A DNA stretch of 64,000 nt from Eledone cirrhosa. Lineage: Eukaryota. The stretch is from NCBI GenBank assembly GCA_964016885.1, contig OZ024745.1, positions 95,852,001-95,916,000 of the forward strand, given 5' to 3'. The notes below the pieces were generated by a model that saw nothing but the letters and a program-made list of their open reading frames with translations, did not search any database and was not told the origin of the DNA. A program made the translations under genes and the position numbers. Shown one piece after another: positions 1,263-34,782 of this stretch. How positions within the stretch are numbered: the first letter of the stretch is position 1; every line of letters starts with the position of its first letter.

Positions 1263-2916
1263 TATATGTATCTATGTATGTATGTGTGTGTGTGTGTGAG
1301 AGAGAGTGTGCGTGTGTGTGTGTGAGTGTGTGTGTGTAAAATCCTGGCTGTAAGGCCAAGTGATTTCGGGTTGTGTGTTCAACAAGCCTTTTCAAGAGTG
1401 TAGTGAAACTGCTTGTGTGATTGGTACCGCAGTCAGGATTTTACATATCTCTATACCCACTCTACATTTCCCCATGCATTGAGTACTCCCATGATTAGTA
1501 GTCTCCTCTGTCTCAGAACTGCACACTCTCTCTCTATATATATAGGTATATATTCAAACATATATGCACTCTATATCAATGGTGTATAACCAAGGTCTGC
1601 TAACAATACATTTTTATACTATTTCTATATATTTTGCATTTTGTTAATAGTTTATAAATATATTGTACTATCATCTAAATATATTTGACATTTATCTTTT
1701 AATGTCATATTCATTTTAACCATATTATAATGTTCAACTTATTCTGTTTAACCATAGACTATATGAAATATCCATGAAATGTTCAAAGTTATTATTGTTA
1801 TAGTTGTAGTTGTAGAGTGTTGGTGAATCATTCATTGCCAATGAGATGAAATACTTATTTTGTACTAATGCAGTAGAACCATCCTTTCTCTATCTTGAAT
1901 CTCTTTCCTTTGTTAACCATTCAATTACTAACCCAGCCAAAACCAGCTCTGGTTCTATGAAATAAAGTCACTCATTTTAAAGGTTTCCAATTTATACCAA
2001 AATCTTCCAGCATAATTTTATATAAGAATCTTACATTAAGTTACTATCTAGTAATGAAATAATTAATGATTTTAGTAACTCCCTCAAAATTCTTCATTAA
2101 TTAATTAAAATAGATTGTATTTCATGAGAGATGCAGTCATGAAAGGACTAATGACCACTAGTTCTGCTTTCCTAAAGTTAGTTTTACCTAACCCAGTTCT
2201 ACTTAAAGCCAGTTCTACCTAAGGTTAGTTTTACCTGAGTTCTTCACTCGTGATGATCTCCAATACCCTAATAAACTGACATAATATCCCTAAAATAAGT
2301 TTCATCAAAGCTGACCCTCTACTAAACTCAAGATAACATAGGTCTGCTCAAATATGTAGGACTTTTTAAATATAGTTTTTAGTCTGATCAAACAGGCCTT
2401 AGACTAAATGTATTACAGCTATGATCATCTCCTTCAATTTTTTCCCCAAGTTAATATACACAGGAATACATTATTTAATGTGTCCTGTTTATTAACAAAG
2501 GGTGTAGCTATCAAGAGATTTGGTTGCTATTTCTAGTAAGCTGAGTGACGACATAGAGGTTTGTTTATTTGCTTGTCTTTCTTGTTGCTTCAGTGGGAAC
2601 ATTCAACAAATACAATAACAACATGCATGGATATATCCAGCCAGTACATTGTATTGGTCCGACATATATTAAAACATGCTAAAAACATGTGCATCTGGTT
2701 TGTGGAAAATTTCCTTATGCTGTTTTATACAGTGAGTATAAAGTAAAACCCATATTTTAATGGGAAATTATGGGATGTTATCTTATACAACAAGATATAT
2801 GGTATCTCTATATATATATATGTGTGTATGTAAAAGGTAATCAGAAATAACAACACAATCGGTACAGTATATGGAAGGGATATATTAGGTTAACGCTTGA
2901 TATAGCAGGAAGAGGG

Positions 2917-2952
2917 TCTTAACATTTCGGACGCTAGTCTTTCATCAGAAGA
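2917..2952 (-). ncRNA. Minimal type I hammerhead ribozyme motif (decayed), Penelope-pLTR type
   Basis: Minus strand reads TCTT-CTGATGA-A-AGAC-TAGC-GTCC-GAAA-TG-T-T-AAGA: stem I TCTT/AAGA, intact core boxes, short stem II. Confidence 0.6.
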
Positions 2953-3315
2953 AAGAATGAGAAATAAGATAGATTGAGGGGATGGGCGGAATGGAATTGG
3001 AAAAAATGTCTTTAGATAAAAATAACAGGTCCATTTATGTTGACATCTCTTGCAAAACTGTTGGTCGTGGCGTTTTGTGTATGATTTAGTTTATAGAAAA
3101 GTGGATGATGGAGTGCATCTACCTGAAATGGAAAAAAACGTTTTGTAAAAAGAGCTATACTTATACATATATATATATTTCCTTCGAATGAAACAGTTCT
3201 AGTCCTGTAGAAGCCATTTCTATATTTTATATATATATATATCCATATGTGGTTAGTGGCTGAGAAAGGAGTATTCAATACTGAAGTAGAGTTTTTATGT
3301 TCATTTTATTAAAGA

Positions 3316-3443
3316 TGAATAGTGAGTCTTGTTACTCTGGAGTTTCACTTGTTCATCACAAGGTCATTAGACAAGATATTAAGATGTCTGATGACCCCTG
3401 TGATAAACAGGTGAAACTCCAGAGTAACAAGACTCACTACTCA
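3316..3443. mobile_element. Imperfect palindrome containing two head-to-head type I hammerhead motifs
   Basis: Plus strand 3385-3432: TGT-CTGATGA-CC-CCTGT-GATAA-ACAGG-T-GAAA-CTCCAGAG-TA-ACA. The minus-strand copy at 3327-3376 has a 6-bp stem I (TCTTGT/ACAAGA) and a CTAATGA core variant. Confidence 0.75.
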
Positions 3444-3451
3444 GCCTTAAT

Positions 3452-3752
3452 GTATATATGGTGGCTGCCAACTCGTTTTCGAATACGGTCACTACTTTAT
3501 ATCCATGTAGGAGAACCCCTACCGATGCGCTGAACGAGTGTGACTTTTTAGTCCAGCCAGCGACTTGAAAACTCTGGTACAAACACTACACTTGTGACAA
3601 TTATTGACACATAGTGCTGGGCCTATGGTACAATGTGACGACAAGTGCAGAAAGATCTCCAGATATAAAGCAATGCCTGTGCCGTGAAGCTTTTATAGTG
3701 AGCCAAGGCACTGCACAAAGCCAGTCCCACTCTCTTAACCAAGATGATATTT
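3452..3752 (-). mobile_element. Inverted, 5'-truncated copy of the 965-1262 RTE-derived element
   Basis: Near-identical reverse complement of 965-1262, with TA-rich flanks. Confidence 0.85.
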
Positions 3753-4848
3753 AATGTATATATAAATATATACATACACACACATATACATAAACATATG
3801 TACGCATGCGTTATGTCGAACATTAATAATGTTCGATTTGTTTGTATATATATATCTATACATATCCCTGCATGTCATAAAAGGCAACTAAAATGCTAGA
3901 AGGGCAGTCAGCCATAAAAAAACTGCCTGAGAAAACCCATCAAACCCATGCCGTTATAGAAAAGTAGACAAAAAACAATGATGAGGATCATAATGATATA
4001 GATATGTATTATGTATGAATGAATATATATATATATATATGTAATTTAATATAGAAATGGCTTCTACAGGACTAGAACTATTTCATTCGCAGGAAATCAT
4101 TAGGAAAGCCTATATATATGTTAGCATGGAAGATGGACTTTAAACGATGATGATGATATATATAAGTATAAAAAAAGTGCTCAACCACAGAAATGCTATA
4201 GAGATCGCTTTGAAATAGGGCAAAGACCATTAAAAGATGCAAAAAGAAGTTACCATTGATCCATATATATACATATATTCTCAGCACTCCAAAGCCGAAA
4301 AATCAGCTTAATACATTGTTTATATATGTATTAATGCATGTATGTTTATCTTTTGCTGACATATATAAATAAATAATGTAAACAGTACAAAAACTAAAAA
4401 AAGACAGGTTCTTATTGAATGAACTCTCTTGTAATATTTGGTCTGCACTGAGTTACACATTGGTTCCTGTTTTATTCTTGATTGTCTTATTGGAAAACTG
4501 TAATAAATGATATTATTGTTTACAAGCTGCAATATAAAATAGTTATATAACTACTGGAGGCAAGATTTAGTAAAAGTAGTTTTCAGTTTAAAAAACCTGG
4601 TATTTTTTGTTAAGAGAATATATATTTAAATAATTGTAGTTGATTGGTTAGTTGGAATATATGGGTGAAGAAGAAATTCCAGAAAAATGATATTCTAAAA
4701 GAGACAGATCAAGAAAAAATATTTACTGTGTAGACTCTGAAAGGATGATCTAATATGGCTGGTGTGAGAATTAGATATGGGTGTAACTGTTATATTTTTT
4801 CTATACAGCAAAGATAGTTAGAGTAACATGTAAGTTCAGAAGAGTTCA

Positions 4849-6205: not shown

Positions 6206-6790
6206 AAGTAAATAATAGTAGTGCTCCAGCATGACTGCAGTCAACTGACTCAAACAAGTAAAAGGATATTGGTGAGCTCAAATCTCATTTGGTGCCTATT
6301 CAGAGCAATTCCTGGTTCTTGAGACAGAGTATGCACTTTTAAAAATTATAACAGTTATCCCATATATAAATAAAAGATGTATATTAAAGAATAACATCCA
6401 TTACTTGCATTTATTTCTATACGTTAGCCATGCACTGCATGCCTAACATCCATGCAGAAAACACAACTGATTTTGGCCATGCTATGAATAAGTTTCTTTA
6501 AAATGTCTTTCAATTAAATATTACCTGACTAGTTTGTAATTGTCATCATTGTCATCCTTATTATCATTGTTTTTACATTCACCTTGAGTTGTACAGGTCA
6601 TTTAGACACCTTTTACAACATGGAAGGTTATGGTGTAACTATTCTAAAAACCAGGATGTACACATGGATCCCATTGTTAGACTGTATTCCTTTTCTGTCT
6701 GTTCTGCTGATGTGTCAATAGTTTTTTCTCCTGTTAACTTGCTGACTAAATGGCATCTATCATATACACAATACATTCATCTATCCTCTG

Positions 6791-7070
6791 TCCACCCACT
6801 AAACCTTATACAAAACACTTTACTCAATCTGTCTTTCTCAAGAGTATATCCACCCACTAAAACTGATACAAAACACTTTACTCAATCTGTCTTTCTCAAG
6901 AGTATATCCACCCACTAAAACTGATACAAAACACTTTATTCAATCTGTCTTTCTCAAGAGTATATCCACCCACTAAAACTGATACAAAACACTTTACTCA
7001 ATCTGTCTTTCTCAAGACTATATCCACCCACTAAAACTGATACAAAACACTTTACTCAATCTGTCTTTAC
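6791..7070. repeat. 58-bp tandem minisatellite, ~4.8 copies
   Basis: Unit tccacccactaaaactgatacaaaacactttactcaatctgtctttctcaagagtata, repeated at 58-bp spacing. Confidence 0.95.
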
Positions 7071-7912
7071 TCAATCAATCTTTCTCAAGACTATATCCTT
7101 TACAACTGCTGTAACAATTCAAACTGAACATCCATTATCTCTATCTACTGTATATATAAAATGGCATATGAAAACTATTGGTTCTTCCTCCCTGCTTTGA
7201 ATAATCAATAATATTTTTATTTCTTAAAATGAACTAATATATGTAATTTTTATAAATGAAAGGTAACCTGAAACTTTTTAAGAATTCATATATTTATATT
7301 GTCAGTTAAACATGGCATTTACTTTTGAAAATCATGTTCACATTTATCTTACTTTAAAGTTTAGTACAGTGCATTTTCAGTACATAGTGTAGCCTATTGA
7401 AATATCTAGCTTTACCAAGTGTTCGCTTTCTGCTAATGGCAATACAACTCTATTTTATTGTTGATTCAATGTTATATAGCTGATTACAATGAAAATGGAA
7501 TGCTTTTTATATATTTCTCAATGGCTTATTAAGAATTCAAACAAATTTGAAACACAAATTTAATTTGACATATTCATTAGTTTAAAATTTTTCGATTAAT
7601 TTTTTTTTTTAACTTTCAAAATTGCTTTTGATACACTTCGTGTGTGCTGAAAATATTTTATCTATATTTATGCACTAGAATAATTGTTTTTCCATATCAA
7701 AAATAGACTCTTTCTTCATAGATTCAAATTTAGATTCTATTATATCATAATAATGTATTTTATTAAGTAAATATTGCAAAAAATTTTCTAATAGTAAAAT
7801 AGTTTATGAAAAAATAATAATCATATGCAAAAATCTGTAAGGTCTACTCTAAGTGCCATTTCAATCTGTCATTTTAAATTAAATTCAGAAAGAAACTCAG
7901 AAACAGTTATAT

Positions 7913-24168: not shown

Positions 24169-24211
24169 GTCACTGAAGAGGTCACAGAATGTGTGACGAA
24201 AGAACTTTGAC
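24169..24211 (+). ncRNA. Minimal type I hammerhead motif (intact core)
   Basis: GTCA-CTGAAGA-G-GTCACA-GAATG-TGTGAC-GAAA-GAAC-T-T-TGAC: 4-bp stem I, perfect 6-bp stem II. Confidence 0.75.
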
Positions 24212-30516: not shown

Positions 30517-30918
30517 TTAATAAAATGTCAGAAGGCGAGGCAAATGTTTTTTCCTCTCAAACCATTTGCAATTGTAGCGACTAGCGCCACCTTGCCTGGG
30601 GAGAAAAACTAATTGGAGTTACTTCCGTTAAATTCTAGAGGATTCCTTGAACTTCTGGTCTAGGGATTATAAAGGAGGGAGAAAAGAGACATCTTAGCTT
30701 TATTTGGCGACCAGCTCTCGGACAGTTCACTCATGAGCGAGTTTGTTAACCTTATTATATCTGTATCGAATTAAATTAGTGGTTGGCCTGCAGTGGCGTT
30801 TACCAAAGTAAATAACCCTGTAAATAACGTGATCATATAATTTCTACCGACGTTTGAACAAATAATTTCTACCGACGTTTCGAAAAAAGAAAATCATCTC
30901 TCTCGACCAAATTTCATC

Positions 30919-31683
30919 ATGAGCAACACATCGTTACCAGCGTATTCTGGCGATGCCAAATTGTGGTTCGCCCAGCTTGATGCGTATTTTGCGGTCAACG
31001 GAGTACAGGAAAAACAGCAAAAATTAAACGTGTTAATCAGCGGAATTCCAGCTTCACTAGCGATTACAGTAAAAGACATAATCACGAACCCTCCCCAAGG
31101 CGTTTCCTACGAGTCTCTGAAGACAGAGTTACTGCGTAGGAACTGTAGGTCGCCTGAGAGTAAATTTTGTTCCTTATTAGAGGATGAAAATCTGGGGGAC
31201 AGAACTCCTACAGAGTTTTTACGGCGTATCCGTGAACTCAGTGATGCTGCGCTCGAAGACAGTTCCTTCGTAACAAAGTTATTCTTCTCCCGTTTGCCAA
31301 CTAACGTGCAAACCATATTAGCGAATACGGTTGACACCAGTTCGATAGAACAAATTGCTGCCTCTGCGGACAGAATTATGGAATTTTCTAGAGAACCTAC
31401 TTCGGCTGATTCGGTCATTGCCTCTTCTGCTTTCAAAACCCAGCCTGCTTCACCTCGTGAGGATTCAATGTTGAGAGCCATTGACGCGCTAACTAGACAA
31501 GTAACTAAACTATGTAGGGATCGAACGCCATCTAGACGGCGTTCACGAAGTCGGTCTTCTTCCTTTCACCGTCGCGCCAACCTCCCCGCCAACAACTCGT
31601 CTTTGAGTTGGTATCACATGCGTTTTCGTGAAAAGGCGAAACATTGTATTCAGCCCTGCTCTTTCGAGACCTCAGAAAACTAA
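30919..31683 (+). CDS. gag: Gypsy Gag (CsRn1-type, degenerate CHCC knuckle)
   Basis: LWFAQLDAYF, LGDRTPTEFLRR and (S)WYH.RF.EKA..C.QPC.F motifs; open 254 aa. Confidence 0.85.
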   Translation: MSNTSLPAYSGDAKLWFAQLDAYFAVNGVQEKQQKLNVLISGIPASLAITVKDIITNPPQGVSYESLKTELLRRNCRSPESKFCSLLEDENLGDRTPTEFLRRIRELSDAALEDSSFVTKLFFSRLPTNVQTILANTVDTSSIEQIAASADRIMEFSREPTSADSVIASSAFKTQPASPREDSMLRAIDALTRQVTKLCRDRTPSRRRSRSRSSSFHRRANLPANNSSLSWYHMRFREKAKHCIQPCSFETSEN

Positions 31684-31699
31684 AATTGGAGAGTCTGGG

Positions 31700-34600
31700 C
31701 ACGGCAGATCTCTCCCTCATTAATTCACCTTATCGTGCTTTTTTCATCAGCAACCGAGTTTCAAACAAATCATTCATGGTCGACACAGGATCAAGTTGCC
31801 CTTACGGTTCAACTCTACCAGGCCAACTCTTTCCGGCATTTCTTTGTATGCAGTAAACCTATAAAAACTTATGGACAGATATATTTAACTCTGGACCTAG
31901 CTTTAAGTCGAGATTTCAAAGGGATTTTTGTCATTGTCGACCTACCTCATCCTATTCTCGGTGTGGATTTCTTACAGCACTATTCACTTTTGGTAGATGT
32001 CAGGAACCAGAAACTTGTGGGTAGTACCACATCCTTAGCTACGCCTACTCGTAAATCTACCACTACTGCTATCAATCCGTCATTTTTTGTGTCTGCCGCT
32101 GGAAACCAGTTTCATGCACTCCTTACTTCGTTCCCCGAGTTAACGGATATTTCATTTAAACCTACTCAGGCAGCCCACTCGACTCAACACTTCGTTACAA
32201 CAACTGGTCCACCTGTTTTCTCTCCTCCACGAAGGTTGTCTCCGGATAGACTAAAAAAAGCACGAATCGAGTTCGAACACATGCTCCAGCTCGGTCTTAT
32301 ACGACCGTCCACCATCCCATGGGCATCTTCGCTTCACTTGGCTCGTAAGGGTGAAGCGGATTTTAGGCCTGTGGGAGATTATCGACGACTTAATGCCATC
32401 ACCACGCCGGACTGTTATCCTCTACCAAATTTACAGGATTTTTCATCCGTTCTGCATGGATGCAAGCTATTTTCCAAAATAGATCTAATACGTGCATACC
32501 ACCAGATACCCATGAATCCAGGGAATATACCCAAAACAGCTGTGACCACCCCCTTTGGTCATTTGAATTCCTGTCCATGCCTTTTGGTTTGCGGAATGCC
32601 TCTAGTACATTCCAGCGTTTTATCGATGAAGTTACGCGTGGATTGGATTTCGTGTTTGCTTACGTTGATGATCTCCTGATAGCCAGTGATTCGGATGAAT
32701 ACCATCATCAACATCTATCTCAGTTATTTCAACGTCTCCAATCGTACCAAGTCAGAATCAACCCAGCTAAATGTGTGTTTGGTACAGATTCACTGGAATT
32801 CCTTAGACACCTTATAGATTCAGAAGGCATTCGTCCTTTGCCATCTAAAGTAGAGGCGATTCAGCAATTAGCACCACCAACATCCTTGAGACAATTACGC
32901 CATTTCTTGGGATTAATTAACTTTTACCGTCGCTTTATTCCTAACTGTGCGGGCAAGTTGTTCTCCTTCACACAGTTTTTAAAGGCTGCGAAAAAGAAAG
33001 ATGCTCCTATTTCACTTTCTACCGATGCTTTGCAGTCTTTTGAATCCGTCAAGTCTGAGATAGCTGAAATTTCCTGACTCGCCCATCCTGTTGCAAACGC
33101 GAAACTTTCTTTATCTGTTGACGCATCCGATCGACCACCAGGTTCAACCACTGGCGTTTTTCTCACGCCAACTAAAACCAGCAGAGCAACGTTACAGTAC
33201 TTTTGACAGAGAGATTTTAGCAGTTTATCTTGCTGTGAGACACTGCCACCATCTTCTTGAAGGTCGGGAGTTCACGGTATTCACAGACCATAAACCACTC
33301 ACATTCGCTCTTCAAACCAAGTCCGACAGATACTCTCCGATAGCATACGGATATTTGGATTTCATCTCCCAGTACACCCGTGACATTCGTCATATAGCTG
33401 GAGCTGCCAACATACCCGCGGACGCATTATCTCGACTTTCTGTATGTTCTCTTGCGTCTCCTGCACATATCGATTTGGCTACCATAGCAACTGACCAACC
33501 TACTTTGGATTCGCTGGACATTTCTTCTACTCAGTTTTCCTGCTGTAAATTTGATTATTTACCTCTTCCATCTGCTGAAGGAAAAATTCTTTGCGATATT
33601 TCTACTGGCTCACCTAGACCACTTGTTCCAGATTGCCATCAATGTACCGTTTTTGATGCACTTCATTCCTTGTCGCATCCCGGCATAGCTGCCACGGTGA
33701 AGCTTATTACGGCTCGATTTTTCTGGCCTAATATGTGTCGTTTAATCACCGGTTGGGCACGTTCTTGTTTGTAGTGTCAGCGCTCTAAGATTTATCGGCA
33801 TGTCCGTGCTCCTCTTGGGAAATTCAGCCCGCCAGACGCACGTTTCCGTCATATACACATGGATATTGTTGGTCCATGGCTCGTTAGTCATGGGTTCACA
33901 TACATATTGACTTGTATGGATCGTTTCTCTCGGTGGCCTGAAGCCATACCCCTAGTGGAAATAACAGCAGAGTCCGTTGCCCGAGCTTTCATTTCCAATT
34001 GGATTGCTCGTTTCGGTGTTCCTACTAAAATAACTACGGATCGTGGACGCCAATTTGAGGCTTCCTTATTTCGTGAAATATCACGACTCTTGGGTGCTCA
34101 TCACATTCATACGACCAGCTATCACCCAGCCTCCAATGGAATGGTCGAGAGGTTTCATAGACAGTTAAAAGCTGCACTCCGCGCTACTCCTGATCCGCAA
34201 CGTTGGACCGAATTTTTGCCAATTGTGCTTCTTGGTTGTCGTTCTGCCATTAAGACAGATTTAGGTTTCTCTTCTGCTGAACTTCTTTATGGTACCACAT
34301 TGTCCTTTCCTGGACAAATGTTAGTACCAGTGGATTCATCGCATCTTGACCCAGCATCATATGTCACCAGGATTCGTTCGTATTTCTCGGATCTTCCACC
34401 AATGAACCCTCGTGACCAGTCTATTTCTTCTGCTGTCCCATCGGACATCTCTACGTGGACACATATTTTTATTCGGAATGATTCCGTCAAGGGACCACTT
34501 ACTTCACCTTATAAAGGACCTTTTCGTGTGCTTTCGCACACACCAAAACACTTTACAGTGGCTGTCAATGGTCGAAAAGAAGTAATATCCGTTGACAGAG

Positions 34601-34782
34601 CAAAGAAGGCTTTCTCTGAAAGTCTCACATCATTGCCTGACATACCTCACACATACACTCCCACACAAACACCTTCACCTCCACCGCAAACACCACATAC
34701 CACACAACCATATGTCACACGAAGTGGCAGGACAGTAATATGGCCACGTAAACCCCCAAAACAATATACGTCTAACCCCTAG
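31700..34782 (+). pseudogene. pol: Gypsy Pol (protease, RT, RNase H, integrase), disrupted
   Basis: [79 protein letters not shown] motifs, spread over several frames with stops. Confidence 0.95.

Follow-up and report, generated by a model that had tools for sequence, protein, structure and literature searches.

A head-to-head hammerhead hairpin of Eledone cirrhosa is very probably the decayed trace of a Hydra-clade Penelope-like element inserted without its body

Head-to-head arrangements have been described before for Penelope-like elements (PLEs). Insertions in which only one of two inverted pLTRs carries a tail are already published (PMC3846280; PMC8557442), as are pairs of hammerhead motifs lying on opposite strands 100-700 bp apart (PMC4209133), and the available text of two of these papers describes the origin of head-to-head Penelope insertions as unresolved (PMC8557442, PMC3846280). 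Craig et al. (2021, PMC8557442) delimit the Hydra clade of PLEs by canonical hammerheads, insertion at (TA)n, the RWK and DKT motifs and the CxCX5C linker; an endonuclease that lacks a CCHH motif is a further mark of the clade. Minimal PLE hammerheads are reported to be inactive as monomers and weak as dimers (PMC4209133). For PAc, a PLE of Anolis carolinensis, the protein was found in vitro to cut and extend both target strands, with two internal starts that bracket the tail and with mostly uncleaved RNA serving as template (PMC11167929).

The window analysed here is a 64,000-nt stretch of the Eledone cirrhosa assembly (contig OZ024745.1, positions 95,852,001 to 95,916,000), and positions below are those of the window. 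It contains an inverted repeat with 56-nt arms (3308-3363 and 3396-3451) of 89% complementarity, folding at -90 kcal/mol (z -17), a stability reached by none of 200 shuffles. An earlier note had described 3316-3443 as little more than two head-to-head hammerheads. The motif scan on each strand bore out the two motifs, each with a type I minimal-hammerhead layout read outward from the centre; the whole feature, however, is asymmetric and spans 3243-3451, with a tail on the minus arm alone that lies beyond the noted interval. BLAST of a reference copy of the family (L101) places the long arm at positions 4-141 and the short arm at positions 7-72 of the repeated unit. The parts are as follows.

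3177-3237, plus strand, and 4044-4110, minus strand: a second hammerhead family, of higher abundance, represented by two pieces that flank the hairpin tail to tail
3227-3242, no strand: (TA)n microsatellite at the end of the tail, likely insertion target
3243-3376, minus strand: long arm, pLTR plus tail, assigned to a Hydra-clade Penelope-like element (82% in BLAST with L101; alignment to the family majority)
3243-3296, minus strand: tail, unit positions 84-141, on the long arm alone (inner boundary counted from the alignment)
3273-3292, minus strand: small tail hairpin motif ACTC-TAC-loop-GTA-TT-GAGT, one base altered in the window copy (read by eye across families)
3327-3376, minus strand: long-arm minimal type I hammerhead motif, C3 at 3370, stem II CTTGT/ACAAG, 6-bp stem I, predicted cut after 3333
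3377-3384, no strand: 8-nt filler at the head-to-head junction
3385-3451, plus strand: short arm, tail-less inverted pLTR covering unit positions 7-72 (92.5% with L101)
3385-3429, plus strand: short-arm minimal type I hammerhead motif, C3 at 3388, stem II CCTGT/ACAGG at 3397-3411, predicted cut after 3426
3460-3750, no strand: unrelated high-copy repeat of 291 bp, adjoining the short arm on its outer side and bordered by direct repeats of 13 nt (3447-3459 and 3751-3763)

Rfam gave no match in the window at gathering score, and the hammerhead model was not among the 11 weak matches at E<=10. For the small tail hairpin motif the predicted fold in copy L044 amounts to only -2.8 kcal/mol, and none is predicted in the window copy. 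No contig across the hairpin centre was found in the contig search, and such a miss is no proof of absence. The very high-copy 291-bp repeat has a second window copy at 967-1257, inverted relative to the first and 97% alike. Motifs of two further hammerhead families lie at 2900-2960 (minus strand) and at 24173 (plus strand), the latter matching those beside the GIY-YIG loci L070, L123, L136 and L139. Elsewhere in the window there are LINE-like fragments (2-571, 21.4-24.0 kb, 25.4-26.7 kb, 52.3-53.2 kb and 56.0-56.6 kb), a tandem array at 6733-7098 (about six copies of a 58-nt unit) and, at 30841-34779 on the plus strand, a series of open frames that resemble LTR-retrotransposon genes for gag, protease, RT, RNase H and integrase.

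Both arms are damaged. The core CUGANGA / GAAA / UH with three helices is present in the family majority and in the plus arm, and the minus arm fails at G5, its core reading CUAAUGA; G5 to A is a standard inactivating change of the hammerhead core, and this motif is predicted to be inactive. In the plus arm the conserved core letters are intact and stem III is a near-palindrome (ACTC-CA-GAGT), while stem I is down to 3 bp, its 5′ strand having lost half its length, and an extra C precedes stem II. The idea that both arms keep the layout of stems I, II and III is not borne out, given the shortened stem I and extra C in one arm and G5A in the other. One compensatory pair is present in stem II of the minus arm. 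The arms differ from each other by six substitutions and one indel over 67 columns, and each departs from the family majority at its own places; with a within-locus divergence of 10.9% in the family, this agrees with the proposal that the hairpin is old DNA and no fold-back of a read.

The earlier note also held that either transcription direction yields one sense ribozyme. This is correct for the letters, but folding of the whole-hairpin RNA gave every ribozyme pair a probability of 0.000, and forcing either ribozyme inside the hairpin carried a penalty of 59-60 kcal/mol on both strands. The hairpin is thus predicted to sequester the sense ribozyme, and a read-through RNA would form one long duplex. 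As a head-to-head transcript has one sense copy only, the dimeric fold required by minimal hammerheads cannot form within one molecule. The window copy is predicted to be catalytically dead and unable to cleave itself.

The note had required other copies, and these are abundant. A search of the 3.0-Gb genome produced 1,322 plus-arm candidates and, for the extension of the minus arm, 867; 40 of each were scored. Exact patterns matched 469 times for a 27-mer and 81 times for a 34-mer, with no match for reversed controls; from a divergence of about 10%, a rough estimate is 5,900 arms in the genome. The unit is 141 nt long, with the ribozyme at 1-55, a spacer up to 83 and the tail up to 141. For an unselected view of its ends we used the first 70 distinct unfetched places of the 469 27-mer matches, in which the ribozyme was not a selection criterion. 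With arm ends taken as BLAST ends against one reference copy, and with the 27-mer anchor itself ending at position 82, the 3′ ends fell at 82-83 in 31 loci, at 136-141 in 26 and in between in 13. Thirty-eight of the 70 loci were head to head: 27 paired a long with a short arm, seven had an intermediate end, three were short-short and one long-long. An earlier, query-biased set of 84 loci gave 49 head-to-head loci, 39 of them long plus short. Duplicate or triplicate loci were removed from these counts and the others below (six from the 84-locus and pair sets, one from the core counts and three from the 5′-stop set). A microsatellite adjoins 75 of 84 arm 3′ ends against a background of 11%, TA being pooled here with other short repeats. 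Tandem head-to-tail arrays of the unit were absent from the 84 and 70 classified loci. In a separate observation, the same copy recurs nine times about 50-60 kb apart on C1 (143.29-143.75 Mb; L103-L105) and three times on C2, a spacing pointing to large tandem segmental duplications.

Junctions of the head-to-head pairs are spread over unit positions 1-56, and either arm of a pair may be the more 5′-truncated. We rejected ribozyme cleavage as the cause of the 5′ ends, as only two of the 70 unselected loci end at the cut site (positions 47-48), with no excess; in the tail-selected set 4/28 5′ ends lie near it, mostly coinciding with microhomology in stem I. A MITE or other DNA transposon was likewise rejected, given the asymmetric arms, the variable junctions and the more than half of copies without a full partner. 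At other head-to-head loci (L118, L325 and L316) the arms continue into the 3′ UTR for 27-113 nt or more, which shows that inverted, 5′-truncated Penelope-like insertions form a continuum with the window hairpin at its short end.

Evidence for the parent element comes from longer copies. Upstream sequence is shared by eight copies of the first 84, and L141 and L142 have about 1.7 kb upstream in common, including a decayed endonuclease-type domain, with an additional inverted RT piece in L142. Pieces of the ORF are linked to the pLTR in L141, L142, L184, L189 and L194 and are absent in the window copy. By tblastn, the database relatives P0001 and P0002 cover L194, L190 and L182 along the ORF (E 1e-44 to 1e-74), and a profile of such relatives set against the RT plus GIY-YIG proteins of this genome gave 489 columns at 97.9%. 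The relatives fall among clusters with HTH_animal, DUF8422 and partly RVT_1; the Pfam GIY-YIG domain matches only 2 of 28 of them (best E 0.001), Pfam named none of the decayed ORF pieces, and PDB searches gave no matches. Of 20 further endonuclease loci that were extended, three are followed on the same strand by the ribozyme unit, one more has the preceding UTR alone, and 16 have neither within about 3 kb downstream. L194 extends to the ORF start and has no pLTR upstream; a tail running into a 5′ UTR was never seen in the copies, and neither an intact ORF nor a full tandem master copy was found.

Several ORF motifs bear on the clade. The CxCX5C linker is present as CNCRDQTQC in L142 and L190, and both RWK and DKT occur in P0001 and P0002, the decayed copies reading KWK (L194) and NKT (L194, L190). 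From the linker, and from a ribozyme that by eye matches File S2 rows of PMC8557442, the family is very probably a new one among Hydra-clade PLEs; the label 'Nematis' was discarded for Hydra given the clade criteria of Craig et al. (PMC8557442). Neptune-like GIY-YIG elements with long ORFs were tried as parents and rejected, the pLTR of the hairpin being found in none of 50 loci. As a side observation, L131 (C3, 308.74 Mb) carries four tandem hammerhead motifs about 500 bp apart, a retrozyme-like array beside a GIY-YIG ORF.

The family copies give no sign that the ribozyme pair is functional. All core letters are kept in 15 of 57 arms, which were not selected for the ribozyme, and G12 is lost in 19 of 57, mostly by CpG decay. 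Base class predicts 53.8 core changes and 42 were counted; the way in which arms were selected favours this slight shortfall, which does not clearly exceed chance. The covariation proposed as a check on the ribozyme pair did not materialize: the score was 0.093 against 0.095 in shuffles, 291 of 500 of which were as high, in an alignment of 52 arms (seven of the 57 left out as gapped and the two window arms added). A compensatory subfamily in stem II was rejected as well, the double change occurring in two of the 100 matches listed (of 326) against 0.5-1.3 by chance. Helices do vary with pairing preserved between Hydra families (table in PMC8557442), which supports the motif in master elements only.

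In the light of these data, the hairpin is very probably a decayed, body-less insertion of a Hydra-clade PLE in a TA microsatellite. It sets an inverted pLTR (3385-3451) head to head with a pLTR and its tail (3376-3243), is predicted to have no catalytic activity, and likely arose when the enzyme of the element initiated reverse transcription at the two sides of a single DNA break. Family membership, copy abundance, the long/short asymmetry, the discrete 3′ ends, the link to a decayed RT and endonuclease ORF and the lack of covariation we regard as established. For the route, an enzyme would cut both target strands and cDNA would start at two internal sites of the RNA, at unit positions ~83 and ~141. 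Those cDNAs, primed from the two sides of the break, would be the short and the long arm; each would have reached the RNA 5′ end or its vicinity before microhomology or filler joined the 3′ ends. We give this sequence of steps an even chance. That transcription begins at unit position 1, immediately ahead of the ribozyme, and thereby sets the RNA 5′ end is a reading we find plausible, if slightly short of even.

A palindrome made by the same element through self-priming, by fold-back on an antisense template in place of two priming events, is the main competitor and was proposed for head-to-head pLTRs by Arkhipova et al. (2013; PMC3846280). Rare variants common to both arms of one locus speak for it as they do for double priming, being 42 against 17 in shuffles (0/2000 as high); they fit one template or later gene conversion. 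The complementarity of stem I moreover offers a possible fold-back site, near which 4 of 28 tail-selected loci join (L032, L042, L046, L057). Yet self-priming predicts the same outer end for both arms or random stops, whereas the 27 long-plus-short pairs among 38 have two discrete ends, equal arm ends occur in only four of 38 and the greater 5′ truncation may fall on either arm; we consider it distinctly less probable, at perhaps a quarter of the weight. Perfect palindromes are also a known artefact in some libraries, but a sequencing or assembly fold-back is next to impossible for this locus: the arms differ at 7/67 columns, are of unequal length and are separated by an 8-nt filler, and dozens of independent loci share the layout with different junctions. 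The arm differences and the hundreds of family copies together make a read artefact unlikely in their own right.

Two readings would grant the hairpin a role. In one, it is a functional or self-propagating minimal two-ribozyme unit with an active hammerhead from either strand, in line with the full ribozyme being spanned by both arms in 8/70 loci (about 300 such hairpins by extrapolation) and with the compensatory pair in the minus arm. We hold this to be highly improbable: the junctions are widely scattered, both cores are intact in only 1/70 and 3/154 loci, the compensatory double change is near chance and covariation is missing, and the window copy itself combines G5A on one arm and a 3-bp stem I on the other with the ~60 kcal/mol penalty. 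The other reading, of an exapted host hairpin serving as a small-RNA source or ADAR substrate, would draw on the predicted, near-perfect duplex of ~60 bp and on a weak match to the mir-597 model (E 0.036, 25 bits vs. a cut-off of 100). Any long palindrome, however, yields such model matches, the divergence of the window arms (7/59) is typical of the family (10.9% over 45 pairs), and a run of A-to-G changes is absent from both arms, so that there is equally little room for exaptation.

Decayed insertion remains the preferred reading, and one lead concerns the 5′ side of the unit. Positions 1-18 match exactly in 205 arms, of which 57 distinct loci were examined. With counts weighted to 205, ~113 (about 55%) stop at position 1, ~5 end in the 25 nt just upstream and ~87 extend at least 28 nt; because the search pattern requires A at position 1, the first figure also takes in arms that stop at 2-3 and match by chance. 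Copies with a body have the initiator-like word TTAGTT here, its A being position 1, and a TATTTATA-like word with at most one mismatch stands at -26 to -30 in 15 of 19 of them. Arms stopping at an initiator-like site with a TATA-like box suggest run-off copies of an RNA 5′ end, primed at both start sites of reverse transcription, and this sharp 5′ stop may be new. The second hammerhead family, whose loci were taken from the DNA search (exact patterns gave 2 and 4 matches), has an inverted partner in 21 of 30 loci with the same head-to-head long-plus-short layout, and its body-bearing copies L328 and L356 have TAAATA-type boxes ~26 nt ahead of CAGT at the ribozyme edge. That pLTRs can contain TATA and initiator motifs has been reported earlier (PMC3846280), and Penelope of D. 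virilis has an internal, TATA-less promoter (PMC2377424).

We tentatively put forward a wider model, which we think possible but rather doubtful as a whole. Most copies would be run-off cDNAs copied from the 5′ leader of an RNA made by polymerase II, with an initiator directly before the hammerhead and a TATA box 26-30 nt upstream; the head-to-head form would result from twin priming, one side of the break always having the pLTR-end start and the other the tail-end start; and truncated copies keeping ~35 nt upstream would act as promoters for a ~140-nt non-autonomous RNA. If true, such promoter-bearing truncated copies would explain the thousands of ORF-less scars. A cap-derived extra G at the 5′ stop was looked for and rejected (68 purine vs. 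137 pyrimidine; G, at about 42, did not exceed C). The 5′ boundary may possibly be a splice acceptor instead, as YAG stands there in both families and the intron of D. virilis Penelope ends at helix I (PMC4209133); against this, neither shared first-exon letters nor a pyrimidine tract was seen. A literature search on twin priming of PLEs, judged by title or abstract start and with subscription papers outside its scope, returned nothing on Penelope.

Two observations concern the tail. A tail motif ending GTATTGAGT, which pairs with an upstream ACTC, is common to three families of the genome (L005, L014, L029) and to Hydra-2_Amil. The short-arm end lies ~5 nt ahead of the tail motif, and the predicted folding is weak. 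As to significance, the single locus matters little, being one of ~300 extrapolated double-hammerhead scars of a dead family. The family is useful as a data set, as the long-plus-short rule and the sharp 5′ stop make two testable predictions that tie genomic layout to the two start sites observed in vitro (PMC11167929).

Compared with known systems, the arrangement and the clade are known and the family is new; the feature is real but ordinary. With the Hydra clade the family shares the single ORF with RT and C-terminal endonuclease, the CxCX5C linker, the (TA)n targets and a hammerhead near the 3′ end (PMC8557442). Its stem III, ACTC-x-GAGT, is that of Hydra-2_aMil and Hydra-1_aJap, and several File S2 rows have the same unpaired bases on either side of stem II; Hydra-2_Amil also has, as compared by eye, a similar CTCTAC...GTATTGAG motif past the ribozyme. 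Hydra-1_oBim, in contrast, is a different family, its listed ribozyme being unlike the present one in every stem (all PMC8557442). What sets the hairpin family apart within the clade is a ~1.4-kb low-complexity 3′ UTR and NKT for DKT in two decayed copies.

Penelope of Adineta vaga has the same inverted pLTRs with a tail on only one, palindromes at the junction and TATA- and initiator-like motifs (PMC3846280); here, by comparison, the body is truncated to zero, the copies are estimated at thousands and the tail is ~58 nt and not 31. The minimal hammerheads of metazoan PLEs are of the same type I with a short palindromic helix III, have the same extra base past A9 and occur mostly as solitary copies (Cervera and de la Pena 2014, PMC4209133). 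Their published opposite-strand pairs are 100-700 bp apart, whereas the two cores in the window are separated by 18 bp, and at 10.1/11.1 the hairpin family has C opposite C where that paper calls a G-C pair highly conserved (PMC4209133). PAc, Poseidon of Anolis carolinensis (Frangieh et al. 2024, PMC11167929), has the same AT-rich targets but belongs to another clade, and its ORF begins inside the ribozyme, an arrangement without counterpart here. Non-LTR retrozymes (Li et al. 2026, 10.64898/2026.07.22.740005) are likewise non-coding, with a type I hammerhead and an origin from PLE pLTRs; they form tandem head-to-tail arrays, whereas the hairpin unit is head to head.
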